A stretch of 64,000 nucleotides of DNA, taken from Minisyncoccota bacterium (GTDB taxonomy: Bacteria > Patescibacteriota > Minisyncoccia > Phycocordibacterales > UBA9973). How positions within the stretch are numbered: the first letter of the stretch is position 1; every line of letters begins with the position of its first letter. Location of the stretch: contig JBBABB010000002.1 of the NCBI GenBank assembly GCA_041657885.1, forward strand, positions 25,483 to 89,482, read 5' to 3'. Below, piece by piece: positions 1,294 through 59,570 of the stretch. The position numbers and the translations under genes are program-made. The notes below the pieces were generated by a model. The model saw only the letters and a program-made list of their open reading frames with translations. It was not told the origin of the DNA and made no database searches.

Positions 1294-1337
1294 CTTCCTC
1301 CCCTGCTAAGGGTAGGTATCCAAAGGACGGAGGGGTT
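1294..1337. repeat. GC-rich element, family A half-copy (cTTCCTCCCCTGCTAAGGGtAGGTaTCCAAAGGACGGAGGGGTt).
   Basis: Related copies lie at 24076-24127 (reverse complement, inside cca) and 59572-59666 (full palindromic copy). Confidence 0.7.
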
Positions 1338-4300
1338 ATTGTTCTTTTATAATTAGAGTGATAACTTTTGTTACAACAGTTTTCTCTTTTGAACCTGAAG
1401 TATTTGAACATGTAAGGATGTAAGTAGTTGTTACGATTGGAGATACTATACGAGTACCTTGTTTTGTTCCCCCCGTATCAAATCCAGTACCAGTACAAGA
1501 ATCAGCTAGAGGTGAATCCCATGCGAGAGTTGATGACCTTCCTTCAAAGATTGTAGATGGATTTGCTTCAAATATAGTAGTATCACTTGGAGCATCTATT
1601 ACGCATTTTGCTGGTAGTGGTAATAGTTGCCAGTGTGTAGTAGGAGCACAGCCTGCTGTCACTGATAATGTTTTCAATGACAAAGCCCCGCTATATAAGG
1701 TGAGTATTTTCTCAACACCATAAACCAGAGAAAACGTTGCAGTTCCTGAAACTGCTGTCGTTGAAGGGACTATAGGACTAGTTCCATAACTTGCATCCAC
1801 TCTAGAATTACCAATTTTGTTTGTTACAGCCCAATCTAATTGAGCATCATTACAACTACTATTTCCTTCTGTAATTGAGCAACCACCCGAAGAAAGAGTT
1901 CCACTTGGAGTGACGCATTTACTCCCATCCCAAAATGTTTGAGGGGTGTCAGTACAGTCCGCATTAACTGTTTCTCTCTTTAATTCTACACCATTGTGAT
2001 AAAGATAAAATATTCTTCCTCCGCTAACTGATGTGTTTCCAACATTATAATTTACTGCGCCTGCGTTTGTTGATGAAACTCCTGTTCCTCCACCTCCGAC
2101 AATCGTATTACTAGGTTCTGTCGTAACAGCAGAAACAGAATTTACCGGATAAATTGTATTCCAACTTATATTGACAGGGCAACTACTTTCACCTTCACCT
2201 ATTTTACAACTAAGCGGATTAATCGTTAGTGTTCCCGACGGAGGATTACATATACCGTTTCCTAGAGTTGTATTTACCGGACACTCCGTATTTACCGTAA
2301 TCAAACCGGAAGTTCCTACCGCTGTTGTCGTCGTTGTATTTTGACATCGGATATAGTAACCGTAGGCACCAATTCCATTTGGAGAAGTATAAGTTTTTGT
2401 ATTGATTACATCTTTAGTTGCGGAAGTATATGCGGTTAAATCTGTTTGATTATTATCTAACAGTTTACATTGAACTAAACCTGAGTTTGTCGTCGGAGTG
2501 TAAGTGAAAGAAACATTTGTATTTGGAGTTGTATTGTAAGTTAGTGGAGAAGCAGTGACAGAGACAGTGACAGAGGTACAAGTTCCGGCAATAATTACTG
2601 AACCTGCTACACAAGTTGTACATGTTGGAGGGTTGGTTGCTCCATTTGCACAAGCAGTTGGTGTAAATGTAGCACTGATTGTATGATTGGCTGTGATGTT
2701 AGAAAATGTATATGAATTAGCAACAGTGATAGCACTTCCATCAACTGTTAGTGAAGCTATAGAATAATTAGTAATAGGAGTAATAGTATATATTTGATTA
2801 GAACCATATGCAACACTTGTTACGCCTGTTGGTGTTACTGTTCCATTTGCCCCTGATGAAGCTGTGATTGTTGGTCTAACTCGACAAGCTCCAGAAACAA
2901 AGTCACTACCTGTTGCACACGCCGTATTCACCGTAATCAAACCAGAAGTCCCTACCGCTGTTGTCGTTGTATTTTGACATCGAATATAGTAACCGTAGGC
3001 ACCAATTCCATTTGGAGAAGCATAAGTTTTTGTATTGACTACATCTTTAGTTGCGGAAGCATATGCGGTTAAATCTGCTTGATTATTATCTAACAGTTTA
3101 CATTGAACTAAACCTGAGTTTGTCGTCGGAGTGTAAGTGAAAGAAACATTTGTATTTGGAGTTGTATTGTAAGTTGTTGGAGAAGCAGTGACAGAGACAG
3201 TGACAGAGGTACATATTCCACCTATTATTGCAGAACCTGGCGGACAAGTTGTACACGTTGGATAGTTTGATGCTCCGTTTGAACAAATAAGCGAACAACC
3301 ATATATATTGCTAGGTCCAGTAGCATTATAATTAGTATCTGTAGCTGTTGTACATCCATACTTTGGGGCAGAACAAGTCGTTACTGTTCCACAAGTCCAT
3401 TTCCAGAGAAGTGAAGTATCAACAGGAGAACTTGAATTGAGCGTTCCAATTGTACAGGCACTTGTTCCAGTTGGTTCAGGATTTTGTGGGGTAGAACCAC
3501 TCCCGGGACCACAAGAATCAACAGGAACTGGAACATTGGTCCATGAGCTACAGTTATCGCCTTCATTCGATTCTGTAATCACCCCGCCACCCGCCGCTGA
3601 AGTCTTGTCGGCACAAACTCTGATTGAATACGTTCCAGCAGAACTAAATATATGACTAACACTTATAGTATTTGTTCCACTTGCAGCAAGAGTTGTCATT
3701 GAAGTAGATGTTTTGTCGGTAATAGTTCCTCCACCGTTGGCCGATGATGCAACTTGGAAGAAATTACTAAAGCTTGCACCTGTTGAAGCATTACCATTGT
3801 TTGTAATTGTTGAAGTGAAAGTTTGAGCAACGTTTATGTAAGCAGAAGATGGTGTTGGAGCTGAAGCTGTGAGATTAGGAGCAGGGCATGCTGGAGTTGT
3901 GAATGAGGCAGGAGTAACTGTCCATCCCGTTCCAGTTGTATTCGTCGCACAACCATACACATAGTATATAGTACTTGGAGTTAACCCCGTTTTAGACATT
4001 GTATATACCCCAGTTGTTCTACCTCCTTGGTCTACACAAGTTCCTGGTGAACCAATAGTAACAGAAGTCCCGCGGGCAGAAAGAGTGGCAGGAACACCTA
4101 AAGATGTAACATTTGCCCCAACTGTTGCGCTATTACAAGTTACAGAAGTTGCAGTTGGACTTGTGACAGTTGGAATAACTCCGACAGGTGCACATACTGA
4201 TCCATTCCAAGATGTAGCTACCGGAGTTTGAGAACAGCTAACAGTAATCGGTAAACTAGCAAGTATATTATCAACAGAAGTTCCATTATTTTCTCCATCA

Positions 4301-5859
4301 ACTTTATTTTTAGAAGTAAGAGTCACTGTTCCACTAGTCCCCCCTACAGAAATAGCACTTCCACTAAATGTTACATTGGTGTTACTACCAGAATTCCCAG
4401 AAACGACAGAAGTTCCTCCCGTTAAAGTAGTCGTTACCCCAGATTTTGGATTTGTTGTCCCCCAATTCATCGGAATATTACAACTTCCTTGTCCCGAAGA
4501 AATTGTACAGGCAGGTGAATACGTCGCAGCTAGAGTTCCAGATTGAGCCAATACATTTTGTATTGCACTTTTTGTAGTAGGAGAAGAAGAATTAGTACAA
4601 TCAAGCTGAAAATCGTTACTGTTGTTTTGTAGGCTTGAGACATTTTTTGGCTGGGGACTAAGATTATTATAAAATGTACCATATGTAGTACCATCAGTAT
4701 TATTTTTTAATATACAACCTCCAGAAGTAAGACCACTAACATTAACCACTAAATATGCCGTACCAATACCACTAGAGTCAGAACTACTTTTTTTAACTAA
4801 ATTTTTACTAGGATTATCTTTTTTTGTAAGTGTAACAGTCACAGTTTGAGAAATTAAATTAAACGTACCAATACATCTCACTGTTCTATTCATTGTAACC
4901 TGTCCATCGTTACAATCAGCATCATAAACCCAAGAACAGCCACTAGGACCTGAGCATGATAAACCAGTCCACCCAGCAAATGTTGAACCTGAACTTGGAG
5001 TAGCTGTAATATAGGCAGTTCGATTTAATAAATAATTCCCCGATCCGGTGAAAGACCCCGTGCCAGTTCCAGCAGATTCAGTTGAAAGTGCGTAGACATT
5101 GGAATCACAATTCATCCCATTCCATAAGGTACCAGAAGTACAAGAAGCCGTTGCCGAATCTGAAGATAACTGTACTCCGTTATAGAAAAGACGAAAGCTT
5201 CTAGTGGCTGTGCGATATTGATTAGTATCATCACCAACAATAGTTATAGGGTAAGTAGTACTGCCTGAAGTCAATGATGTTGGAGCTATTACATCAGTAT
5301 TCCAAGGAGTTGTTACAACTCTAGAAATTGCATTAGCAATAGGATTTGCTACACTCCAATTTATTTGGGAATTACAACTATTATATCCTGCCTGAACAGG
5401 ACAATCATTGGCATTTAAAACACCTGAGGGATTAGGCCCACCACCACCGATAGTAACAGTTGCTGACGCTGCAACTGAAGTATATCCAGACCTACTACAA
5501 GTTACAGTATAAGTTGTGGTTTGAGTAGGATTATAGACGACAGAACCAGAGGGAGTTGCTGCTTCAGCTTCTTTTATCCCTAATAAACTCGCAAACTTTT
5601 GTAGAAATGTTGATGGTACAAATGGTAATGGTAAAGTATTATTAATTCCTATAGGAACTCCTCCAGCATTAACAGTAATCGCACAAGTAGTGGCAATCGT
5701 TGATGACCAAGTAAGAGTTACAGGATTCCCTGATGCAACTGAAGTAGGAGATACACTGGCTTGAACGGTAATTCCAGTAAGAGCAGAAGCATTATTTGCA
5801 AAAAATAATGAACCGACCAAAATAATACTTAACACAAAAATTTTTGATAGATTTTTCAT
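1336..5859 (-). CDS. Giant secreted Ser/Thr/Gly-rich surface protein (1507 aa). It carries a CARDB-like module and an internal tandem duplication of about 110 aa.
   Basis: Signal peptide MKNLSKIFVLSIILVGSLFFANNASA. Motif STGASFSNFFQ ... YSIRVCADKTSAAGGGVITESNEGDNCSSW is shared with the proteins at 9320-11965 and 49670-52753. The C-terminal Ig-like module is homologous to that of 9320-11965. Confidence 0.85.
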   Translation of the reverse strand: MKNLSKIFVLSIILVGSLFFANNASALTGITVQASVSPTSVASGNPVTLTWSSTIATTCAITVNAGGVPIGINNTLPLPFVPSTFLQKFASLLGIKEAEAATPSGSVVYNPTQTTTYTVTCSRSGYTSVAASATVTIGGGGPNPSGVLNANDCPVQAGYNSCNSQINWSVANPIANAISRVVTTPWNTDVIAPTSLTSGSTTYPITIVGDDTNQYRTATRSFRLFYNGVQLSSDSATASCTSGTLWNGMNCDSNVYALSTESAGTGTGSFTGSGNYLLNRTAYITATPSSGSTFAGWTGLSCSGPSGCSWVYDADCNDGQVTMNRTVRCIGTFNLISQTVTVTLTKKDNPSKNLVKKSSSDSSGIGTAYLVVNVSGLTSGGCILKNNTDGTTYGTFYNNLSPQPKNVSSLQNNSNDFQLDCTNSSSPTTKSAIQNVLAQSGTLAATYSPACTISSGQGSCNIPMNWGTTNPKSGVTTTLTGGTSVVSGNSGSNTNVTFSGSAISVGGTSGTVTLTSKNKVDGENNGTSVDNILASLPITVSCSQTPVATSWNGSVCAPVGVIPTVTSPTATSVTCNSATVGANVTSLGVPATLSARGTSVTIGSPGTCVDQGGRTTGVYTMSKTGLTPSTIYYVYGCATNTTGTGWTVTPASFTTPACPAPNLTASAPTPSSAYINVAQTFTSTITNNGNASTGASFSNFFQVASSANGGGTITDKTSTSMTTLAASGTNTISVSHIFSSAGTYSIRVCADKTSAAGGGVITESNEGDNCSSWTNVPVPVDSCGPGSGSTPQNPEPTGTSACTIGTLNSSSPVDTSLLWKWTCGTVTTCSAPKYGCTTATDTNYNATGPSNIYGCSLICSNGASNYPTCTTCPPGSAIIGGICTSVTVSVTASPTTYNTTPNTNVSFTYTPTTNSGLVQCKLLDNNQADLTAYASATKDVVNTKTYASPNGIGAYGYYIRCQNTTTTAVGTSGLITVNTACATGSDFVSGACRVRPTITASSGANGTVTPTGVTSVAYGSNQIYTITPITNYSIASLTVDGSAITVANSYTFSNITANHTISATFTPTACANGATNPPTCTTCVAGSVIIAGTCTSVTVSVTASPLTYNTTPNTNVSFTYTPTTNSGLVQCKLLDNNQTDLTAYTSATKDVINTKTYTSPNGIGAYGYYIRCQNTTTTTAVGTSGLITVNTECPVNTTLGNGICNPPSGTLTINPLSCKIGEGESSCPVNISWNTIYPVNSVSAVTTEPSNTIVGGGGTGVSSTNAGAVNYNVGNTSVSGGRIFYLYHNGVELKRETVNADCTDTPQTFWDGSKCVTPSGTLSSGGCSITEGNSSCNDAQLDWAVTNKIGNSRVDASYGTSPIVPSTTAVSGTATFSLVYGVEKILTLYSGALSLKTLSVTAGCAPTTHWQLLPLPAKCVIDAPSDTTIFEANPSTIFEGRSSTLAWDSPLADSCTGTGFDTGGTKQGTRIVSPIVTTTYILTCSNTSGSKEKTVVTKVITLIIKEQ

Positions 5860-5987
5860 AGTGATAAATTTATAATAATAAAAAAAATATTTATTAAAAC
5901 TAAAGATAATATTAAAAAATAAAATATCTTAATTATTAGAATTATACCACATAAAAAGTATATTAAGAATAGTAATGAGCAAAAAGA

Positions 5988-6968: not shown

Positions 6969-7030
6969 GATATGATTTATTTGTTTATTTTTTCAAGAGG
7001 ATTTGTTTAAATTTATCGTGACAAACGCTT

Positions 7031-7128
7031 ATTTATCCCCACACCTATATTTCCATCAAAAATATATAACAGCAGGGTATTTTTACTAAAAAAGCAGAAT
7101 GATGGGAATATGGGTGTGGGGATTTATC
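7031..7128. repeat. P-family MITE-like element. TIRs atttatCCCCACACCTATATTTCCATC / GATGGGAATATGGGTGTGGGGatttatc.
   Basis: The inverted pair is visible. The inner sequence aaaaagcagaatgatgggaatat recurs in the copy at 20539-20683. Confidence 0.8.
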
Positions 7129-7207
7129 AAGATAAAATTAAACAAATCCGAACAATATGCCTTTGTACTAATTATCTAAGTAATTAAGCATCATGTCAAG
7201 GAGTTTT

Positions 7208-7350
7208 ACCCCCACACCCACTTTTTCATTGCTTTAATATTGTGCCATTAAAATATTCAGAAATATATAAAATATCTTTATAAATCAAGTATAAATAATA
7301 ATATTCCTAAAAAATAAAGCACAATGATGAAAAAGTAGGTGTGGGGGTTT
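7208..7350. repeat. P-family MITE-like element. TIRs CCCCCACACCCACTTTTTCAT / ATGAAAAAGTAGGTGTGGGGG with an AT-rich core of about 100 bp.
   Basis: A perfect inverted repeat of about 21 bp. Confidence 0.8.
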
Positions 7351-7360
7351 ATGCACTTTT

Positions 7361-7527
7361 TATCCCCACACCTATATTTTTATAGATTTTCATCTTTTAA
7401 ATAAAAAACTACTTAATTGGTATTTCTAATAAATTATCGCGTAAAAATAGACATTTTGTATTCAAAATAATAAAAATATAGGTGTGGGGATTTATCCCAC
7501 CTTGCCACCTATATTTTTATTGCAGGC
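7361..7527. repeat. P-family element (tatCCCCACACCTATATTTTtata ... AAAAATATAGGTGTGGGGATTTATC) plus an adjacent partial inverted fragment ccaCCTATATTTTTATTGCAGGC.
   Basis: Inverted TIRs are present. The 3' fragment shares TTTTTATTGCAGGC with the copy at 1209-1287. Confidence 0.75.
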
Positions 7528-7771
7528 TCCTTTTTATCCTAATTTTAAGTTGAAATAATGCCCTGCCGTCCTTTTTTAGAGACGATTCTCTTTTCCTTGC
7601 ATCACTCTCATCAAAATATGATTCATAATATCTAAGTTCAAAAGGACGACGACTTTTAGTGGAAAAAACTTTACCATTATTATGATCCGAGAGCCTGCGT
7701 CGTAAATCATTTGTTGAGCCAATGTAAATATTATTGTCTTTTTTACTTTTTAAAATATATAAGTAGAACAT
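7517..7771 (-). CDS. GIY-YIG nuclease-superfamily small protein (YhbQ/UPF0213-like, 84 aa).
   Basis: N-terminal motif YLYILKSKKDNNIYIGSTNDLRRRLSDHN is a classic GIY-YIG. The gene is flanked on both sides by same-orientation copies of the P-family TIR. Confidence 0.8.
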   Translation of the reverse strand: MFYLYILKSKKDNNIYIGSTNDLRRRLSDHNNGKVFSTKSRRPFELRYYESYFDESDARKRESSLKKDGRALFQLKIRIKRSLQ

Positions 7772-7800
7772 ATATTTATATTATATGATTTATGACTATA

Positions 7801-7826
7801 AAAATATAGGTGTGGGGATTTATCCA
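7801..7826. repeat. Solo P-family TIR (AAAATATAGGTGTGGGGATTTATCC). It contains a perfect DnaA-box-like nonamer TTATCCACA.
   Basis: Identical to the right TIR at 7473-7497. Confidence 0.7.
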
Positions 7827-7866
7827 CAGGGCTCCAAAACCCTTTCCATAGTAGCAAGGACGGTCC

Positions 7867-8583
7867 TTGCTAATTTTTTATAAACCTTCAAAATTATTTA
7901 TGCAATCATTGAGATATTGCATTAATATACCATTTATGCTAGGATGTGGACTGGAGATTAGGTTAAACCTAAGTTCCAGTAGATATATGAATAATAAAGC
8001 TAAAAAAGGGGAATATTTAGACATTCTATTAAGATCAAAGAATAGCGTATTTTCAACGAAAGATATCGCTTTGCTTTGGCGTGATGTTCAAACAACGGCA
8101 TCGCAAGTAAGATTGAACTATTATGTTAAAGCTGGGAAGCTTATTAGAATTCGTAGAGGTATTTATGCAAAAGATAAAAATTATGATAAATATGAATTTG
8201 CGACTAAGATTTTTAGACCCTCATATATAAGTTTTGAAACTGTCTTAGGTGCATCTGGTATGACTTTCCAATATTATGGAAATATTTTTATTGCTTCATA
8301 TTTAAAGAGGGAGATTAAATGTGACGGACAAACTTATTCTTTTGTAAAAATGAAGGATTCTATTTTAAGTAACCCAAAAGGAATAGATCAAACAGGTGAA
8401 TATGCTATTGCTTCAAAAGAAAGAGCTTTCTTGGATACAATTTATAGAAGTAAAAAGTATTATTTTGATAATCATTCTCCGCTTGATTGGGATAAGGTAT
8501 TTGAAATGTTGCCAATTTATAATAATAAAAAAATGGCAAAAACTGTGCAAAAATATTATAAGGATTATAAAACTACTAAATAA
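7867..8583 (+). CDS. AbiEi-family type IV TA antitoxin / transcriptional regulator.
   Basis: wHTH region carries the LIRIRRGIYAK (RRG.Y) signature and the gene abuts the AbiEii-like gene downstream. The 5' end is uncertain. An internal ATG (MNNKAKKGEYLDILL) about 120 nt in is the likelier start. Confidence 0.65.
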   Translation: MLIFYKPSKLFMQSLRYCINIPFMLGCGLEIRLNLSSSRYMNNKAKKGEYLDILLRSKNSVFSTKDIALLWRDVQTTASQVRLNYYVKAGKLIRIRRGIYAKDKNYDKYEFATKIFRPSYISFETVLGASGMTFQYYGNIFIASYLKREIKCDGQTYSFVKMKDSILSNPKGIDQTGEYAIASKERAFLDTIYRSKKYYFDNHSPLDWDKVFEMLPIYNNKKMAKTVQKYYKDYKTTK

Positions 8584-8585
8584 AT

Positions 8586-9290
8586 ATGACATTAAATTAT
8601 CCAATACATAAAAATATTCTCGTACAGATACTTATTGATATTTACTCGGATACGACAATTAGCCCATATTTAGGTTTTAAAGGTGGAACGGCTGCTTATT
8701 TGTTCTATGGACTTGATCGTTATTCTGTTGACTTAGATATTGATATTTTAGATGAATCAAAAGAAGATTACATCTTTGAACAAGTTGAAAAAATAGGGAG
8801 AAAATATGGAGAAGTAAAAGAATCTCAAAAGAAAAGATTTAATCTAATATTTTTAATATCGTATGAGAATAAAGAAAAAAATGCTCAGAATATAAAAATT
8901 GAGATTAATCGTAGGTCTTTTGATTCAAAATATGAAGTTCGTGCCTTTAATGGTATTTCAATGCTTGTAATGGTCAAAGAAGATATGTTTGCTCATAAGC
9001 TTGTAGCCATGCACGAACGACTAGGAATAACTAATCGTGATATTTTTGATGTATGGTTTTTCTCAAAAAATAACTGGGAAATTAATAAAGAAATTATAGA
9101 AAAAAGAACAGGAATGTCATATAAAAAATTTCTTGAAGTATGCATTAAAGAATTAGAAAAGATGAATAATAACAATATTCTCCATGGTCTTGGTGAGCTT
9201 ATAACAGAAAAACAGAAAGCTTGGGTAAGATCAAAATTAAAACTTGAGACAATTTTACAACTAAAATTAAGATTAGAATCCGAAAATTAA
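8586..9290 (+). CDS. AbiEii/AbiGii-family nucleotidyltransferase toxin (DUF1814-like), 234 aa.
   Basis: Motif FKGGTAAYLFYGLDRYSVDLDIDI is the GGTAL..R.S.DID nucleotidyltransferase signature. Start lies 2 nt after the upstream stop. Confidence 0.7.
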   Translation: MTLNYPIHKNILVQILIDIYSDTTISPYLGFKGGTAAYLFYGLDRYSVDLDIDILDESKEDYIFEQVEKIGRKYGEVKESQKKRFNLIFLISYENKEKNAQNIKIEINRRSFDSKYEVRAFNGISMLVMVKEDMFAHKLVAMHERLGITNRDIFDVWFFSKNNWEINKEIIEKRTGMSYKKFLEVCIKELEKMNNNNILHGLGELITEKQKAWVRSKLKLETILQLKLRLESEN

Positions 9291-9319
9291 TTTCATCATA
9301 AATATTTTTTGAGTGTTTT

Positions 9320-11965
9320 TTACGTTTCTATAATTTTTATACTACTAACTGTAATGGTAGCTTGCTTAAATTCAGTTATGTTATCTCTTGTACAAGAAAT
9401 TTTATAAACAGTTGTTTTCAATGGAACTACCGTTGAGCTACCATTTGGGTTATTAGTTCCTGTACTCCATTCACCAAATCCTGTTTCATTAAGAGCTTTG
9501 CAATTATCAGCATTTGAAGTCCACATAAGAACAGAAGATCTTCCTTTAAATATTTTAGCTGGATTTGGGGTAAAGGTTATTTTTAATAAGTTTCCACCGT
9601 TACCACCAAAAATATTATCCCCGGTGTCCGTACCTGTACCTGTGCCTGTACCTGTGCCTGTACCTGTACCTGTGCCTGTATCTACACTTGTATCGTCACC
9701 AATAGACGCTACACACTTCCCTCCATCCCATCCTGTTCCACTTTCACAACTTGCCCCAACCGGCAGAATATCAAGTGGTAAACTATTATGATTAAGGAAA
9801 AATGTAGTTCCCCCATAAGCAACTGGAATGTTTTTCCTTTCTACTGGGAAAGTAGGAATGACAGCAGATGAAACGACAATTGTATTGTTTGGATTTTTAG
9901 TAACATTAGTTTCTTTTCCTGTTATAGGATTAATAATGTCTATAGTCAAAGTTGTCTCACAATCACTTGCGTTTTCTTCTATCTCACAATCATCTCCAGA
10001 AAGAGTTCCAACAGTACCACCTTCAGGCGAAATATCAACAGGAACCCATGCGCTACAATTATTGTCCTCAACTAACTCTATAACTATTCCTAGACCAGCA
10101 GCAGAATTTTTATCTGCACAAGCTCTAATATAAAATGTTCCAGTAGCTTCAAACGAAATCGATTGTAAAGCGACCGCTGTTTTATCAACTGCAAGAGCAG
10201 ACATCCCCGGTACATCATAATCAGTTAATGTTCCTTCCCCTTCTGGAAGTGTTGATGTTTGAAATAAATTGGTAAAACTTTTACCTGTTGAAATTGAGCC
10301 TTGATTTTTTATTGTTGAGGAAAAATTTGTTGGCGTTTTAACTATCACCGAAAGTGGAGATGGAATTGAAGCTATTAGATCAGGTCTTGGCTCACAGATT
10401 GTTCCATTCCAAATCGTTTTAGGTGCACATGTCGCATTTATCGTCGCACCATTTGGAGTAATAGTTTCTCCGTTGTGATTCAAAAAGAAAGTTGTATTTG
10501 GATAATCAACTGTTATATTTGGTTTTTCTACTGGGAAAGTATTGATAATCGCAGAAGGAACAACGAGTGTATTTGGTTCAGGAATATTTTTTGTGACATT
10601 TGTTGGTGCTTTTGTAACCGGCTTATAAACATTTAATGTCAATGTTGTCTCACAATTGCTTTCATTCATTTTTATAACACAATCATTTCCACTTATACTT
10701 CCACCATTTGGGTCAACTGGCATTGTAACAATAACTTCTAACCAATCACTACAATTATCCCCTTCATCACTTTCTGTAATTTCACCTAAACTATCTCTAT
10801 TGCTTTTATCTGCACAAGCCCTGACAAAAAACGTTCCTTCTTCACCAAATACATACACCTGAGAAGCAGTACCAGAAGCCCCTTCGTTTAATTTCCCCAT
10901 TGTGGTTGGGTCTAAACCTATAGCTATTGTCTCGTCTTCCTTATCAGTCGTTACTTGGAAAAAGTTTGAAAAACCTTTATTGGTAGAGACATCTCCCGTA
11001 TTGCTAATTATTGAGGTATATGAATTAGAAACACCAACTTCTACTTTTGCTGGAGTATAAGTTGGAACTGAAGCTTTAAGATTAGGTTTATTTAGAGGAA
11101 CTTCAGGATTTTCACTATTACCACATCCCCAATCTATTCCGTAATTTTTTGCAACACTAGCTGAAAACCAACATGAATAAGGTGTGCAGTTATTCCCTTC
11201 ATCTGACTCATTGACATCTGACTCTACATCTGTACAAAATCTTACTTTATACCCTGTATAAGTCCCATTGGCTCCATTATTCTCTGCTGGGAAAGTAACT
11301 GGGGAGAAATTTGAAACTGCGTGACCCGCAGCAACTATCATTGGCATCTTATATTTACCGGTAATGAGGGCATTTTCTTTCCATGTAGTATTAGGAATAG
11401 TTGCTGGCTCAATAATGTTACCATTTTGGTCTAACCTTGCAGTTTTAGAAATTATTTCGTAAGAATTATAAAAAGATGTTTTTGTGCTAGAACCAATAGA
11501 GTTCCACACTCCTGGTCGAAAAGTTACGGGGTTACCAGCAGGATATCTCGCATTATTGTATTGAGAAGAACCGTTCGAATTTATCGTCAAATCTGATGGC
11601 TGATAAGTAACAACAAGAGTAGGAGTTATTGTGGTTTTTGTTACTTCAAAATTTTTACATATTAATTCATACTCTGTTGTGATTACAGGATAAACTGAAG
11701 TTGAAACTGTGGTTGTAACTGTAGGGTTTGAAATAGGATGTGATGAAATAAAAATATTACTTCCACCGTTATAATCAAAAAAATCACAAGAACTAGCTCC
11801 AACTACTTTCCAGGAAAGTGTTGCTGATTGACCTTCAATAATACTAGTCGGACTAGGGGCAAAATTGGTGATAACAATATCTGTTACAGCAAAGGTTTTA
11901 CTTGCAATAAATAAAGAGCCAAAAACAAATAGACCTGACACAAAAATTTTTAATAGATTTTTCAT
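9320..11965 (-). CDS. Giant secreted surface protein (881 aa) with two CARDB-like modules and a (TG)n linker. Paralog of the protein at 1336-5859.
   Basis: Signal peptide MKNLLKIFVSGLFVFGSLFIASKTFA resembles the paralog's. Motifs FVRACADKSNRDSLGEITESDEGDNCSDW and YIRACADKNSAAGLGIVIELVEDNNCSAW are present. The C-terminal Ig-like module is homologous to the paralog's. Confidence 0.85.
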   Translation of the reverse strand: MKNLLKIFVSGLFVFGSLFIASKTFAVTDIVITNFAPSPTSIIEGQSATLSWKVVGASSCDFFDYNGGSNIFISSHPISNPTVTTTVSTSVYPVITTEYELICKNFEVTKTTITPTLVVTYQPSDLTINSNGSSQYNNARYPAGNPVTFRPGVWNSIGSSTKTSFYNSYEIISKTARLDQNGNIIEPATIPNTTWKENALITGKYKMPMIVAAGHAVSNFSPVTFPAENNGANGTYTGYKVRFCTDVESDVNESDEGNNCTPYSCWFSASVAKNYGIDWGCGNSENPEVPLNKPNLKASVPTYTPAKVEVGVSNSYTSIISNTGDVSTNKGFSNFFQVTTDKEDETIAIGLDPTTMGKLNEGASGTASQVYVFGEEGTFFVRACADKSNRDSLGEITESDEGDNCSDWLEVIVTMPVDPNGGSISGNDCVIKMNESNCETTLTLNVYKPVTKAPTNVTKNIPEPNTLVVPSAIINTFPVEKPNITVDYPNTTFFLNHNGETITPNGATINATCAPKTIWNGTICEPRPDLIASIPSPLSVIVKTPTNFSSTIKNQGSISTGKSFTNLFQTSTLPEGEGTLTDYDVPGMSALAVDKTAVALQSISFEATGTFYIRACADKNSAAGLGIVIELVEDNNCSAWVPVDISPEGGTVGTLSGDDCEIEENASDCETTLTIDIINPITGKETNVTKNPNNTIVVSSAVIPTFPVERKNIPVAYGGTTFFLNHNSLPLDILPVGASCESGTGWDGGKCVASIGDDTSVDTGTGTGTGTGTGTGTGTDTGDNIFGGNGGNLLKITFTPNPAKIFKGRSSVLMWTSNADNCKALNETGFGEWSTGTNNPNGSSTVVPLKTTVYKISCTRDNITEFKQATITVSSIKIIET
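9632..9700. repeat. Hexanucleotide microsatellite (cctgtacctgtg)n encoding the in-frame dipeptide run DTGTGTGTGTGTGTGTGTDTGD.
   Basis: Tandem CCTGTA/CCTGTG units are visible inside the CDS. Confidence 0.85.
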
Positions 11966-12121
11966 ATTTAATAAATTATTAATAATAAACTAACTACTTA
12001 CAATTATATCATCTCCATTGACTAATTAAAAGCATTGCGGTAACATTACCTATGTAAGTCCGTTCTCGAACCGGGCTTTTATTTTTAGAAAAATAAGGAG
12101 CAAGGCGACTATATTTTTCTT

Positions 12122-12171
12122 ACCCCCACACCTACTTTGGGATTCAATTATCAAAGTAGGTGTGGGGATGG
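12122..12171. repeat. Short P-family hairpin (ACCCCCACACCTACTTTG ... CAAAGTAGGTGTGGGGAT) in the divergent promoter / 5' leader region of nusA.
   Basis: A 17-bp inverted repeat with the same CCCCACACCTA core as the other P elements. Confidence 0.75.
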
Positions 12172-12209
12172 AAATTTTTATATTTCGCTCGGTTCCATTA
12201 AAAATTACC

Positions 12210-17627: not shown

Positions 17628-18704
17628 ATGCTACAATTAGTGCAACAAATGATTAAATTAACAGAAAGACAAAAAAAAATATTAGGATTTATAACAGAAA
17701 ATACCCAAATCGGTATCTCAGAAATTCTTGAGTTTATAAACAAAAATGAGTTAGAAATTACTCGTTTTTCTATTATCCGTGATTTAAATATACTTATTGA
17801 GAATAACCTAGTAAAAAAAGTGGGTGGTGGCCGTTCTACAAAATATACACCAAAGGAAAATGATACTCTCCATAAATATATTGATATTGATGATTATTTC
17901 AAAAAACCACAAGATGAGAGGGTTCTTATCTCAAAAAACTTTGAATTTAACATTTTTGAAAAAATAAATAATTTATTTACAAAAGAACAACTAGAAAAAA
18001 TAAACGTTCTTAACAATAAATTTAGAGAAAATATAAATAAAATTTCTCCGACCATAAAAAAACTAGAAATGGAGAGATTTATCATAGAATTATCTTGGAA
18101 ATCATCGCAAATAGAAGGAAATACTTACTCGCTGCTGGATACAGAATATTTAATCAAAAATAAAATTGAAGCTGAAGGACATAAAAAAGAAGAAGCCATT
18201 ATGATTTTGAATCATAAAATTACTTTAGATTTTATAAATAAAAATACTTCTTATTTCAAATCAATATCTATAAAAAAAATAGAGGAGCTACATAAACTTA
18301 TAACGGAAGGATTAGGAGTCAATCATGGAATTAGAAAATCTCCAGTCGGGATTACGGGGACAAATTATATTCCGCTTGATAATGAATATCAGATAAAAGA
18401 AGCTATAAAAAAAATGACTGAGAGAATAAACAAAGAAGTAGATCCAATTATAAAAGCATTCCTATCTTTATCTATTATTTCTTATATACAACCATTTGAA
18501 GACGGAAATAAGAGAACAGCGCGACTACTCGCAAATGCGATACTTATCGCTCACAATTACTGCCCACTATCATACAGAAGCGTCAAAGAGGTTGATTATA
18601 AAAAAGCAATTTTAGTGTTTTATGAGTCTCACAATCTTGATCCACTAAAAAGAATGTTTGTTGAGCAATTTGAATTCGCTATTAAAAATTATTTTAGAAA
18701 ATAA
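17628..18704 (+). CDS. Fic/Doc-family protein with an N-terminal wHTH. Its core motif is the non-canonical QPFEDGNKRTAR.
   Basis: Fic fold motif .PF.DGN.R..R is present, but the catalytic His is Gln and the second Gly is Lys, which is Doc-like. wHTH: LTERQKKILGFITENTQIGISEILEFI. Confidence 0.75.
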   Translation: MLQLVQQMIKLTERQKKILGFITENTQIGISEILEFINKNELEITRFSIIRDLNILIENNLVKKVGGGRSTKYTPKENDTLHKYIDIDDYFKKPQDERVLISKNFEFNIFEKINNLFTKEQLEKINVLNNKFRENINKISPTIKKLEMERFIIELSWKSSQIEGNTYSLLDTEYLIKNKIEAEGHKKEEAIMILNHKITLDFINKNTSYFKSISIKKIEELHKLITEGLGVNHGIRKSPVGITGTNYIPLDNEYQIKEAIKKMTERINKEVDPIIKAFLSLSIISYIQPFEDGNKRTARLLANAILIAHNYCPLSYRSVKEVDYKKAILVFYESHNLDPLKRMFVEQFEFAIKNYFRK

Positions 18705-20521: not shown

Positions 20522-20538
20522 AATAATGTAATTCGGGG

Positions 20539-20683
20539 CTTGCCCCCACACCTATATTCCCATAGCTTTTATTCTGTTAAGCAAAATTCCTAATCATTTC
20601 ATATTTTTGATTGAATTATAGAGTTATAACCTTTTTTTATTGAAAAAGCAGAATAATGGGAATATAGGTGTGGGGGCTTGTAT
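20539..20683. repeat. P-family MITE-like element. TIRs cttgCCCCCACACCTATATTCCCAT / ATGGGAATATAGGTGTGGGGGcttg.
   Basis: A perfect inverted repeat of about 25 bp. Internal sequence is homologous to the copy at 7031-7128. Confidence 0.85.
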
Positions 20684-20805
20684 TAAAATTAGCTTGGTAT
20701 ATAATAACATCATACCTATTTATTAGGGATCGTTTGCAAACGGTCGAATATTATTCAGATAGAATGTATATTTTTTTGTTTTTTTAAAAAAATACACAAA
20801 AAATA

Positions 20806-42434: not shown

Positions 42435-44456
42435 ATGCGATATCTTGATTCTTTGAATGAAAAACAAAAAGAGGCAGTTCTTTATACGGATGGGCCTCTT
42501 TTGATTGTAGCTGGGGCTGGAGCAGGGAAGACGAAAACATTGACTCACCGAATAATTCACCTTATCCACAAAGGAGTAAACCCGAGCTCAATATTGGCAG
42601 TAACCTTTACAAATAAGGCCGCAAAGGAAATGCGGGATAGGGTTATGGGATTGTTGGAAGATAGGGAGCATGGAGTTAGTGCGCCCGAGCGAAGCGAGGG
42701 CGCCCCATTCGTCTCCACCTTTCACTCACTTGGGGTTCATATTATAAAAGAAAATTCTCATTTGATAGGTTTGAATAAATATTTCACGATTATAGACGAG
42801 AGCGATGCGCTGAGCATCATCAAAAGCATAATGAAAGAACGCGACATAGATACAAAACAACATGAGCCAAGAAAAATAAAATCAATTATTTCAAAGTCAA
42901 AAGGTGACTTTATTACAGTAGATACATTTAGTGCCAATGCAAAAAGTGCTGTGCAAAGTATCGTCGCAATGATTTGGCGAGATTATGAAGCAAGATTGAA
43001 AAAAGAAAAAGCATTGGACTTCGACGATTTACTTCTTGAGACAGTTTTGATTTTAAAAAAATATCCGGAGATAAAACAAAAATATCAAGAGGAGTGGAAA
43101 TATCTTCATATAGATGAGTACCAAGATACGAACGAAGTTCAATATGAAATGACAAAACTTTTAGTCGGAAAAGAAGAAAATATTTGTGTTACGGGAGATT
43201 GCGATCAATGTGTGTATTCATGGCGAGGTGCTAGCATCAAAAACATGTTGCACTTTGAAAAAGATTATCCAAACGCCAAGATAGTAATACTCGAACAAAA
43301 TTACCGCTCAACAAAAAATATTATTGAAGCGGCAAATAGTGTTATTGAGAAAAATGTTTATCGCGTGCCTAAAATTTTATTTACGGAAAATGTGAAAGGG
43401 GAGGAGATTACGATTTGCGAAGCTTATGATGAACAAAGTGAAGCAATATTTGTGGTAAAAAAGATAGACGAATTTTTAAAAGAAAATAATCCCGAAGATA
43501 TCGCGATACTTTATCGTGCAAACTTTCAATCAAGAGTTTTAGAAGAGGCATTACTTGATAAACAAATTCCTTATCAAGTACTTGGAGTAAAATTCTTTGA
43601 ACGAAAAGAAATTAAAGATTTGCTCGCATACATTCGCCTCTCTTACAATAAAGAAAGTTTGTCGGACATAAAAAGAATAATAAATATTCCAACTCGTGGA
43701 ATAGGGAAGACCACAATCGCAAAACTTTTTGCGGGGACTACAAATGATTTACCAAAAGGAATGCAAATAAAAATTGGAAAATTCTATGAGCTTGTTGACG
43801 GCATACGATTGTATATTGACTCTCATAAACCATCTGAATCTGTGAAATACGTGATAGAGAAAAGTGGACTAAAAGAGGAGCTTTCTCACGGCACGAGCGA
43901 CGAACAAGAACGCTTGGAAAATATGATGGAATTGGTAACTTTAGCTATAAAATATGACAATATTCCAGACGGTGAAGGAATGGAAAAACTACTTGAAGAT
44001 GCATCTCTTGCAAGCGACCAAGACACTCTGATGCACCCCATTAAAAACCGCGAGGGATCACAAGGACCCTCTGTTTCTAACGGGACAGGTAAGGGAAATG
44101 GCGTGAAGTTAATGACAGTGCATGCATCGAAAGGTCTTGAGTTTAAATATGTTTTCATCACGGGGCTTGAACAAGATTTATTCCCACATACAAAAGGAAA
44201 TTCAAAAACAAAAGAAGACAACGAGGAAGAGAGAAGATTATTTTACGTGGCCGTCACTCGAGCAAGGGAAAAATTATTTTTATCTTATGCATCACTCCGA
44301 ACAATTTTTGGAATGAAACAAGTGAACAGCCCAAGCGAATTCATTTACGATATTCCCGCACACTTAACAATTTTTGAACAAGCATATTCTTCAAGGGGAC
44401 CTGCCCGCCCTCACAAAGATTCGGGAGCAGGCGGGGAGAAAGTGGTGTATTTATAG
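42435..44456 (+). CDS. pcrA: UvrD/PcrA-family ATP-dependent DNA helicase.
   Basis: Motif I AGAGAGKTKTLTHR, Ia TFTNKAAKEM, II LHIDEYQDTN, plus later motifs. The C-terminus carries a family D insertion (..ARPHKDSGAGGEKVVYL). Confidence 0.92.
   Translation: MRYLDSLNEKQKEAVLYTDGPLLIVAGAGAGKTKTLTHRIIHLIHKGVNPSSILAVTFTNKAAKEMRDRVMGLLEDREHGVSAPERSEGAPFVSTFHSLGVHIIKENSHLIGLNKYFTIIDESDALSIIKSIMKERDIDTKQHEPRKIKSIISKSKGDFITVDTFSANAKSAVQSIVAMIWRDYEARLKKEKALDFDDLLLETVLILKKYPEIKQKYQEEWKYLHIDEYQDTNEVQYEMTKLLVGKEENICVTGDCDQCVYSWRGASIKNMLHFEKDYPNAKIVILEQNYRSTKNIIEAANSVIEKNVYRVPKILFTENVKGEEITICEAYDEQSEAIFVVKKIDEFLKENNPEDIAILYRANFQSRVLEEALLDKQIPYQVLGVKFFERKEIKDLLAYIRLSYNKESLSDIKRIINIPTRGIGKTTIAKLFAGTTNDLPKGMQIKIGKFYELVDGIRLYIDSHKPSESVKYVIEKSGLKEELSHGTSDEQERLENMMELVTLAIKYDNIPDGEGMEKLLEDASLASDQDTLMHPIKNREGSQGPSVSNGTGKGNGVKLMTVHASKGLEFKYVFITGLEQDLFPHTKGNSKTKEDNEEERRLFYVAVTRAREKLFLSYASLRTIFGMKQVNSPSEFIYDIPAHLTIFEQAYSSRGPARPHKDSGAGGEKVVYL
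44398..44441. repeat. Family D GC-rich hairpin element, in-frame at the helicase C-terminus.
   Basis: gaCCTGCCCGCCCTCACaaagATTCGGGAGCAGGCGGGGAgaa, about 90% identical to 16291-16331 in tig. Confidence 0.75.
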
Positions 44457-57734: not shown

Positions 57735-59570
57735 ATGTCAATATTTTCAAATTTATTAGGAAAAAAGAATAACATCTCTAAAAACAAGAGCATGGTTATG
57801 CCTGTTTTACCAAGTGAAATATATAAAGCGGCAGCACTTGAACTTCAGGATATTATCGCTCCATCAGCTCTTCAGATAACTCCAAGGTCACTAAACCTCG
57901 GAGACAAAATAGCAAGAACATTCTTTGTAATATCATATCCACGGTATCTTAGTGATAATTGGTTCTCTCCAATTATAAATTTGGATAAGGTTTTTGATGT
58001 ATCTATTTTTATCCACCCTATTGACACAGCAGAAATATTGAGAACATTTCAGAAGAAAGTAGCCGAGGTTCAGAGTCAAATCTCTGTTCGTGAATCAAGG
58101 GGGCTAGTGCGAGACCCAATGCTTGATACTGCATACCAAGACCTTGAAAATTTACGAGATAATCTTATGCAAGCTCAAGAGAAAATGTTTAATGTTGGTC
58201 TTTATATCACAGTTTATGCTGAGAATGATAACGATTTATTTAAAATTGAAAATGAAATTAAATCTCTTCTTGAATCAAAACTCATCTATCTAAAGCCAGC
58301 ACTATTTCAGCAGGCTGAAGGATTTAAAAGTGTTATTCCTTTAGGAACAGACGTGCTAGGTATTCACCAAAAACTCAACACTGAACCACTTTCAAGTATT
58401 TTCCCATTCGTCTCTTTTGACTTAACTGATGATAAAGGAATATTGTATGGGGTCAATCGCCACAATTCTAGCTTGATTCTTTTTGATAGATTTTCCCTCC
58501 CAAACTACAACTCCATAATTTTTGCAACTGCTGGAGCTGGTAAATCTTATGCCGCTAAATTAGAAATTATTCGTACTTTAATGTTTGACACAGAAGTTAT
58601 CGTCATAGACCCAGAGCGTGAATACGAATATCTAGCTGAAGCAGTAGGAGGTAGATATTTTAACATCGCTCTTTCTTCCGACCACCATATAAATCCTTTT
58701 GAATTACCTATTCCCACAGGAGATGAAACAGGGGCAGATGTTCTCCGCTCAAATACTATAAATCTTGTAGGGTTGTTCCGCATAATGCTTGGAGGATTAA
58801 CACCAGAAGAAGATTCTATTATAGATAGTGCTATCACAGAGACATATGCCTTAAAAGATATTACCGCGGAGTCAGACTTTAGAAATATTGAGGTTCCATT
58901 ATTAACGGACTTTGAGATGGTTCTCTCTGGAATGGAGGGAAGCGATTCGCTTGTCCAGCGCTTGACCAAATATACTCACGGGTCTTGGGCATCATTTTTA
59001 AACCAACCATCAAACGTTGATATCAACCGAAAATTTATAGTTTTCTCTGTCAGAGATATGGAGGATGAACTAAAACCTGTAGCAATGTATATTGTTACTC
59101 ATTATATTTGGAATTCTATTCGTAAAAATATTAGAAAAAGATTACTTGTAGTAGATGAGGCCTGGTGGATGATGAAATCAGAAGATACTGCATCGTTCCT
59201 CTATTCTATTGCTAAAAGAGGACGAAAATACTGGCTAGGACTTGCAACTATTACTCAAGACGTAGGGGATTTTATGAAAAGCGCTTATGGCATACCTATT
59301 ATTACTAACTCTTCTATTCAATTACTTCTAAAACAGTCCCCAGCAACAATAGATGTCTTACAAAAAACATTCAGTCTTACAGAGGAAGAGAAATATTTGC
59401 TGTTAGAGGCAAATGTTGGAGAAGGTATCTTTTTTGTTGGCCTAAAACACGTTGCAGTTAAAACAATCGCTTCTTATACCGAAGACCAAATTATCACATC
59501 TGACCCTTCACAAATTTTGGCTATCAAAAAAGCAAAAGGGGAATTATTGGCGGCGGGGAGTAGTAATTAG
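57735..59570 (+). CDS. VirB4/TraC/ConE-like T4SS ATPase, C-terminal motor portion (611 aa).
   Basis: Walker A FATAGAGKSYAAK, Walker B LLVVDEAWWMM. Walker A sits about residue 265, so about 200 N-terminal residues appear to be supplied by the preceding ORF. Confidence 0.85.
   Translation: MSIFSNLLGKKNNISKNKSMVMPVLPSEIYKAAALELQDIIAPSALQITPRSLNLGDKIARTFFVISYPRYLSDNWFSPIINLDKVFDVSIFIHPIDTAEILRTFQKKVAEVQSQISVRESRGLVRDPMLDTAYQDLENLRDNLMQAQEKMFNVGLYITVYAENDNDLFKIENEIKSLLESKLIYLKPALFQQAEGFKSVIPLGTDVLGIHQKLNTEPLSSIFPFVSFDLTDDKGILYGVNRHNSSLILFDRFSLPNYNSIIFATAGAGKSYAAKLEIIRTLMFDTEVIVIDPEREYEYLAEAVGGRYFNIALSSDHHINPFELPIPTGDETGADVLRSNTINLVGLFRIMLGGLTPEEDSIIDSAITETYALKDITAESDFRNIEVPLLTDFEMVLSGMEGSDSLVQRLTKYTHGSWASFLNQPSNVDINRKFIVFSVRDMEDELKPVAMYIVTHYIWNSIRKNIRKRLLVVDEAWWMMKSEDTASFLYSIAKRGRKYWLGLATITQDVGDFMKSAYGIPIITNSSIQLLLKQSPATIDVLQKTFSLTEEEKYLLLEANVGEGIFFVGLKHVAVKTIASYTEDQIITSDPSQILAIKKAKGELLAAGSSN

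Follow-up and report, generated by a model that had tools for sequence, protein, structure and literature searches.

The 64,000-nucleotide stretch analyzed here, from a Minisyncoccota bacterium (contig JBBABB010000002.1, positions 25,483 to 89,482), is referred to below as the window. Between two giant surface-protein genes it carries a pair of adjacent open reading frames (ORFs) on the forward strand, which a first-pass annotation, made from the letters alone, read as an AbiEi/AbiEii toxin-antitoxin (TA) pair. Both ORFs lie where that annotation had placed them (Table 1). The gap between them is exactly the 2 nt it had given, with the TAA of ORF1 at 8581-8583 and the ATG of ORF2 beginning at 8586. 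The RRG.Y signature ascribed to ORF1 is present as RIRRGIYAK, RRGIY starting at residue 56 of the 198-aa protein defined below, and the peptide quoted from ORF2, FKGGTAAYLFYGLDRYSVDLDIDI (FKGGT...DLDIDI), corresponds to its residues 31-54. The pair does sit between the two giant genes, sharing this interval with a 309-aa lipocalin-like lipoprotein gene, a 550-nt non-coding, repeat-filled spacer and an 84-aa GIY-YIG gene. We conclude that the locus is very probably an intact two-gene AbiE cassette (AbiEi/AbiEii, COG5340/DUF1814) of 1.38 kb, equipped with its own promoter and horizontally acquired by a chromosome of the Patescibacteria (candidate phyla radiation, CPR; Nomurabacteria/Paceibacteria-like).

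Identity of the two genes

Do the two ORFs belong to the AbiE families? The profile search that had been proposed as a check places both above curated Pfam cut-offs: ORF2 reaches 68.7 bits against AbiEii (PF08843; cut-off 22.5) and ORF1 28.7 bits against AbiEi_4 (PF13338; cut-off 25), the latter over residues 10-61. PADLOC sub-family models match over the full length of the proteins. ORF2 aligns with the AbiEii model PDLC02324 (2.3e-75) over residues 7-229, or 223 of its 234 residues, and all 18 of its PADLOC matches are AbiEii models; ORF1 aligns with the AbiEi model PDLC02255 (9.3e-60) over residues 9-191, near its full length, and is matched by 25 AbiEi models. The 198-aa form of ORF1 has a match at 100% identity in NCBI, under the name 'type IV toxin-antitoxin system AbiEi family antitoxin domain-containing protein'. 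Homologs of ORF2 at 64-92% identity were found in metagenome-assembled genomes (MAGs) of Nomurabacteria, Pacebacteria, Parcubacteria and Gracilibacteria, and several of them carry the database name 'AbiEii/AbiGii toxin family protein'. No HEPN or minimal-nucleotidyltransferase (MNT) Pfam domain was detected in either ORF, and the partner is a winged helix-turn-helix (wHTH) protein, so the pair does not have the makeup of a HEPN-MNT module. Together with family conservation, fold, gene order and pairing, these matches agree with the AbiE identity first proposed.

The toxin retains the residues that define its family. Across 75 family members there is no variation at F31, K32, G33, G34, T35, R45, S47, K104, E106, K138, R145, R151, D152 and D155, and conservation reaches at least 90% at D49 and D51. 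Motifs I and II are found as F31-K-G33-G34 and R45-Y-S47-V-D49-L-D51, following the pattern of DNA polymerase beta (Pol-beta)-type nucleotidyltransferases (hG[GS], then DhD). Motif III is found as K138-L-V-A-M-H-E-R145, to be compared with KLxAaxxR, the 'a' position being Met and not aromatic, and motif IV (+DxxD) as R151-D152-I-F-D155. These residues correspond to the set defined by mutation in Streptococcus agalactiae AbiEii (G49/G50 in motif I, R63 and D67/D69 in motif II, K173/R180 in motif III and D192 in motif IV; PMC3985639), and R45-x-S47-x-D49-x-D51 mirrors R63-x-T65-x-D67-x-D69 of that protein.

The AlphaFold2 model of ORF2 has a predicted local distance difference test score (pLDDT) of 93 and a predicted template modeling score (pTM) of 0.89, and places S47 in the loop that joins helix 34-41 to strand 49-54. 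Among PDB entries, Foldseek ranks JHP933 of Helicobacter pylori best (8.6e-9, TM-score 0.65), along with MenT4, TglT/MenT3 and MenT1, all of them DUF1814 proteins. JHP933 (PDB 4O8S / 4OK0) is the sole PDB match of ORF2 at the sequence level (1.7e-7 with the single sequence, 9.6e-11 with the profile), and so is the closest solved structure by sequence as well as fold. At 232 aa it is of similar length and shares the KG[GE]TA...R[FY]S.DLD and RD.FD motifs with ORF2, but the two proteins are only ~20% identical and JHP933 is located in a plasticity zone. The MenAT systems of Mycobacterium tuberculosis (toxins MenT1, MenT3/TglT and MenT4; antitoxins MenA or Rv2827c) share the toxin fold (Foldseek E 1.8e-6 to 8.8e-4) and a conserved Ser/Thr phospho-acceptor position, and MenA3 and Rv2827c are AbiEi-like; they differ from the present pair in that identity is 13-15% and the MenT toxins are larger or have different accessory elements. 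Likeness in architecture extends to the AbiE systems of S. agalactiae and Lactococcus lactis, which have the same bicistron with the antitoxin gene first, a wHTH antitoxin of ~195-200 aa, the same DUF1814 toxin motifs I-IV with the R-x-[ST]-x-D-x-D active-site strand, and an inverted repeat at the promoter, for which the counterpart here would be the candidate operator described below. In contrast to these systems, the present toxin is shorter (234 aa, with a Pfam match that ends at profile position 191 of 238), the genes are separated by a 2-nt gap instead of overlapping by 4 nt, the host is a CPR bacterium, and sequence identity is very low.

The first gene needs a new start. Its reading frame and stop were drawn correctly; its start at TTG 7867 (238 aa) is a mechanical over-extension, the upstream frame containing stop codons in relatives. 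An intermediate start at ATG 7936 (215 aa) was also rejected: its Met is absent in three relatives (L006, L008 and L009), and the codon sits between the -35-like and -10-like boxes. We take ATG 7987 as the true start because the antitoxins of relatives align from residue 1 of this form, because stops lie upstream and the Met at 7936 is not kept, and because ATG 7936 would fall inside the promoter; NCBI's identical protein likewise has 198 aa.

Several points weigh against the AbiE reading. ORF1 falls short of the NCBIfam AbiEi equivalog NF047376 (32.4 bits against a cut-off of 150), which ranks it in a distantly related sub-family and not as the equivalog of characterized AbiEi. A sequence search of the PDB with ORF1, as a single sequence and as a profile to E = 10, returned no AbiEi match. 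AlphaFold2 models it with low confidence (pLDDT 65, and under 50 at residues 75-119), and the best PDB match of that model, S. agalactiae AbiEi (6Y8Q; E = 6e-3), has a TM-score of only 0.30. Furthermore, toxicity, neutralization, DNA binding, phosphorylation and phage resistance are properties that we infer for this pair by analogy. The poorly modeled block of ORF1 is the most conserved part of the antitoxin family (P78, Y80, S82, F83, E84 ... Y105), and by its place in the sequence would correspond roughly to D85-E86-I87 of S. agalactiae AbiEi, the loop that contacts the toxin.

The two genes are kept together. An AbiEi homolog lies directly upstream on the same strand in 78 of the 80 genome loci that encode relatives of the toxin, the other two being interrupted by contig ends, and the spacing between the genes is mostly -4 to +8 nt across the family. 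Ratios of non-synonymous to synonymous substitution rates (dN/dS) against six relatives are 0.07-0.11 for the antitoxin and 0.04-0.11 for the toxin, showing purifying selection on both genes. Might the pair nonetheless be a remnant in decay and without function, or a housekeeping nucleotidyltransferase that is not toxic, together with its regulator? An in-frame stop in the toxin gene of one relative and the existence of orphan AbiEii homologs without AbiEi in phage contigs would fit such a view, but both genes of the window are full length with low dN/dS, all catalytic residues are intact and conserved, the pairing is near universal, and a patchy, context-independent distribution is unlike that of a housekeeping gene. 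We therefore consider a remnant or housekeeping function very improbable. The relative in question, locus L041 (6001-6702) of a Paceibacterota MAG, has its stop inside the AbiEii homolog next to an intact AbiEi, and the toxin there may be inactivated.

Table 1. Features at and around the abiE locus (positions in the window).
Feature	Position	Strand	Basis or remark
ORFs as listed by program	7867-8583; 8586-9290	+	TTG start, 238 aa; ATG start, 234 aa
Mobile abiE cassette (promoter, palindrome, abiEi, abiEii)	7914..9296	+	blastn edges, guanine-cytosine (GC) content
-35-like hexamer TTGCAT, predicted	7917..7922	+	17 nt upstream of -10-like box, conserved stretch
-10-like hexamer TAGGAT (relatives: TAATAT or TATAAT), predicted	7940..7945	+	Conserved spacing
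31-bp imperfect palindrome ACTGGAGATTAGGTT-A-AACCTAAGTTCCAGT	7950..7980	+	Candidate AbiEi operator; alternatively a hairpin in the 5' untranslated region (5'-UTR)
abiEi, AbiEi-type winged-helix antitoxin, 198 aa	7987..8583	+	Pfam, PADLOC, NCBI identity, dN/dS
abiEii toxin, 234 aa, DUF1814 Pol-beta-type nucleotidyltransferase	8586..9290	+	Pfam, PADLOC, residues, AlphaFold2/Foldseek, dN/dS
1507-aa CARDB surface-protein gene	1336-5859	-	
881-aa surface-protein gene, relative of the 1507-aa one	9320-11965	-	
Stand-alone GIY-YIG nuclease gene, 84 aa	7517-7771	-	Pfam 8e-20
Units like repetitive extragenic palindromes or miniature inverted-repeat transposable elements (REP/MITE-like)	1205-1290, 7026-7135, 7199-7360, 7353-7500, 12115-12175, 20535-20685		Lone arm at 7798-7828

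The mobile cassette and its palindrome

What is the unit that moves? None of the neighboring genes in the window travels with the pair in related loci. Relatives that are 88-92% identical stand beside NUDIX or HAD hydrolase and YchF/Sua5/LeuRS genes, or near CTP synthase, and the relatives occupy at least three unrelated chromosomal contexts. When the locus is compared by blastn with relatives in unrelated contexts (86-88% identity), homology has its edges at 7914/7917 and 9292/9296, with nothing beyond. At 28.1% GC, where the window averages 35.6%, the cassette falls in the lowest 0.5% of same-size windows. Because DNA homology is confined to 7914-9296 and GC content is low, we interpret the element as a horizontally moved cassette of 1.38 kb; the sharp edges indicate that the moving unit consists of the promoter, the palindrome and the two genes.

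Adjoining the cassette, we found no integrase, recombinase or other mobile-element gene, and the only match that could be a target-site duplication at its edges, the 7-nt AAAATTA, is not meaningful at 28% GC. An empty-site search of metagenomes, with the C-terminus of the flanking 881-aa gene as query, yielded two distant relatives, neither of them informative. A plasmid collection gave one distant Campylobacter match (30% identity) and a phage-genome collection gave none. The IMG/VR search returned three contigs; of the two that were looked at (L092 and L094), L094 is clearly viral and is without the antitoxin. This genuine phage fragment (UViG_3300031524_000097) carries an Erf-like protein, RusA and a portal protein (4e-72), and its 60%-identical AbiEii homolog (8001-8741; a further one is on L093) directly follows an intein-containing, terminase-like ORF of 730 aa. 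As no AbiEi is detectable upstream of it, we regard the toxin homolog as an orphan in this phage.

Among close relatives, conservation upstream of abiEi begins ~70 nt before the ATG, and DNA farther upstream is unalignable. Across 25 aligned loci a TATAAT-like box lies ~4 nt before the palindrome. The -35-like hexamer is too weak for a sigma-70 consensus scan, in which promoter-like matches are not enriched (13 versus 14.1 in shuffles); terminator-like matches number 3 versus 0.8 expected. Near the pair no tRNA or other known RNA element was found, with no Rfam match there; tRNAs occur only at 21.9-23.8 kb. The palindrome was located in each locus by anchored search, and its pairing was scored by a formal pair count. 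Its distance to the start codon is exactly 6 nt in most family loci. The ACT(G)...(C)AGT termini and the TTTAA center are retained, and the inner arms change together: over the 25 aligned loci, pairing extends to 86% of cells (70.5% in shuffles), a level reached by none of 500 shuffles, changes occur on both sides in 10 of 14 pairs, and slid controls are 26-45% paired.

Is the palindrome a DNA operator or an RNA structure? The pattern of conservation and the analogy with known systems make it likely that it serves as the AbiEi operator. We favor a DNA operator because most positions that depart from Watson-Crick pairing are not wobble pairs either (45 other, 22 G.U and 14 A.C) and because known AbiEi proteins bind long imperfect inverted repeats in promoters. 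The Rv2827c operator of M. tuberculosis comprises four 23-bp repeats bound with negative cooperativity, and that of S. agalactiae AbiEi two inverted repeats of 23 bp over the -35/-10 region (PMC3985639). Unlike the latter, the palindrome described here is built of two arms of 14-15 bp around a spacer of 1-3 bp and is placed downstream of the -10 box, a difference that counts against the operator assignment. The same position could suit a stem-loop of the 5'-UTR that controls mRNA stability or the start of translation: beginning ~4 nt after the -10-like box, the palindrome would stand right at the 5' end of the transcript, with 6 nt left between it and an ATG that has no visible Shine-Dalgarno sequence. 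As RNA it folds at -14.9 kcal/mol (z = -4.1), with the compensatory changes noted above. However, G.U is not strongly preferred over A.C as it would be in a strand-specific RNA helix, the TTTAA-type center is typical of operators bent by protein, characterized AbiEi proteins bind inverted repeats of their own promoters, and covariation is also expected where a palindrome binds one protein in two copies. A purely RNA-level role is thus, in our judgment, unlikely.

Even less likely, and offered as speculation, is a dual role, across this Patescibacteria-wide AbiE sub-family, in which the DNA operator would also act as a 5' stem-loop gating translation of the antitoxin or stability of the mRNA. 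If this were true, the element would set the antitoxin:toxin ratio or sense infection, and the cassette from promoter to stop would be a self-contained mobile regulatory unit able to land anywhere, including in the vicinity of phage genomes, where orphan toxin copies occur.

A separate hairpin with a perfect 10-bp stem, TAGCAAGGAC-G-GTCCTTGCTA followed by ATTTTTTATA, lies at 7852-7872 (+), ~40 nt upstream of the left homology edge and outside the cassette. Flagged in the terminator scan for its hairpin and T-run, it resembles a + strand terminator, and there is no + strand gene upstream of it.

Proposed mechanism and role

How might the pair work? The type IV label given to it at first pass is the classical one (PMC3985639), and a January 2026 preprint (10.64898/2026.01.19.700257) argues instead for type VII. 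According to that preprint, AbiEii of S. agalactiae is bound by AbiEi, which causes it to auto-phosphorylate at T65, and the phospho-acceptor lies two residues before the first catalytic Asp in AbiEii (T65), MenT3 (S78) and MenT1 (T39). In ORF2 this position is occupied by S47. By analogy with these proteins, its invariance fits type VII auto-phosphorylation better than the classical type IV label. As for the activity itself, the MenT toxins and S. agalactiae AbiEii add nucleotides to tRNA 3' ends, S. agalactiae AbiEii preferring UTP and CTP.

By analogy with S. agalactiae AbiE and M. tuberculosis MenAT, the winged helix of AbiEi would bind the 31-bp palindrome and repress its own operon. With G33/G34, D49/D51 (plus E106), K138/R145 and R151-D152..D155, AbiEii would attach nucleotides, probably pyrimidine nucleoside monophosphates, to the 3' acceptor ends of tRNA; the modification would block aminoacylation and stop translation, leading to growth arrest. 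The C-terminal part of AbiEi would dock on the toxin and trigger auto-phosphorylation at S47, switching the toxin off in type VII fashion. Loss of antitoxin supply, or dephosphorylation, for instance through phage-induced shut-off, might then free the toxin, with abortive infection and/or stabilization of the DNA that carries the cassette as the outcome.

Is defense the purpose? The pair was described at first pass as an abortive-infection module; its membership of AbiE stands, and abortive infection is a putative role of this sub-family. In L. lactis, AbiE confers abortive infection, and AbiE is reported as one of the five most prevalent defense families in groundwater MAGs, in a survey covering CPR genomes (PMC12259885). 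Against this, S. agalactiae AbiE in E. coli protected against none of 32 coliphages, so that a defense role is not guaranteed. The same TA pair might instead serve addiction, stabilizing this variable chromosomal patch, or simply persist selfishly. Such a role would suit a compositional outlier that moves between contexts as a minimal unit, and AbiE systems are known to stabilize plasmids and integrative and conjugative elements (PMC3985639; PMC11062541). Set against it, besides the L. lactis phenotype and the prevalence among groundwater genomes, is the lack of any integrase or other mobile-element gene beside the cassette. Addiction in place of phage defense is accordingly possible but, as we see it, the less expected of the two, and the roles are not mutually exclusive.

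The intact AbiE cassette is an ordinary, already recognized system: its antitoxin is named by NCBI, its sub-family models are in PADLOC, and an AbiEii-AbiEi pair has earlier been noted in a patescibacterial MAG (PMC13059738). Our additions are modest, namely a corrected antitoxin start, cassette boundaries at the nucleotide level and a conserved candidate operator. The pair matters mainly as annotation, in that a streamlined CPR genome has kept an intact AbiE module in a variable surface-protein region. For a large uncharacterized AbiE sub-family the conserved palindrome provides a concrete candidate operator, and the invariant Ser47 makes this sub-family a natural test of the generality of the proposed type VII mechanism.

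Other features of the window

The pair had been called the only clear defense-type module in the window. In a PADLOC screen of 41 other long ORFs in the window, this claim largely stood, since the other matches were generic, with one caveat. The match to GajB/RTasHel (42435-44456) is a stand-alone UvrD-type helicase and that to mad8 (57735-59570) a TraG-like ATPase; both were rejected. The caveat is a gene for a Fic-domain protein at 17628-18704 (+; Pfam 3e-14), with a partial PADLOC match to SoFic (1e-18) over profile positions 49-218 of 361. Its region, at 27.2% GC, is the other strong low-GC outlier of the window. From the low GC content and the SoFic match, this may be a second defense or toxin gene acquired horizontally.

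The two giant surface-protein genes are alike in their 5' ends and in the DNA before them (5800-5873 versus 11906-11979; 74 nt at 76% identity). On account of this common DNA, and of the CARDB domains present in both, we consider them paralogs. Within the 881-aa gene, a 12/18-nt periodic repeat at 9621-9692 encodes (Thr-Gly)n. At locus L091, a relative of the 881-aa protein (58% identity) is followed downstream by two ORFs on the - strand (1771-2184 and 2190-2636) that resemble by eye an MNT protein (GS...DVDIGV) and a HEPN/DUF86 protein (R..IIHKY). To judge from these motifs, this looks like a different nucleotidyltransferase TA module at a comparable position.

The REP/MITE-like units are palindromic, with ends TTTATCCCCACACCTAyTTT ... 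AAArTAGGTGTGGGGATTTAT. Exact GGTGTGGGGR cores occur 13 times versus 2.4 expected, and 7 of the 13 fall within 7036-7818. The arms covary within each unit, the interiors are variable, AT-rich and 12-110 nt long, and all units are intergenic and lie outside the AbiE cassette. The GIY-YIG gene is flanked by two direct copies of one repeat arm (7470-7500 and 7798-7828), and GIY-YIG homologs are also found within ~1.5 kb upstream of the AbiE pair in four related loci (L012, L020, L021 and L073).

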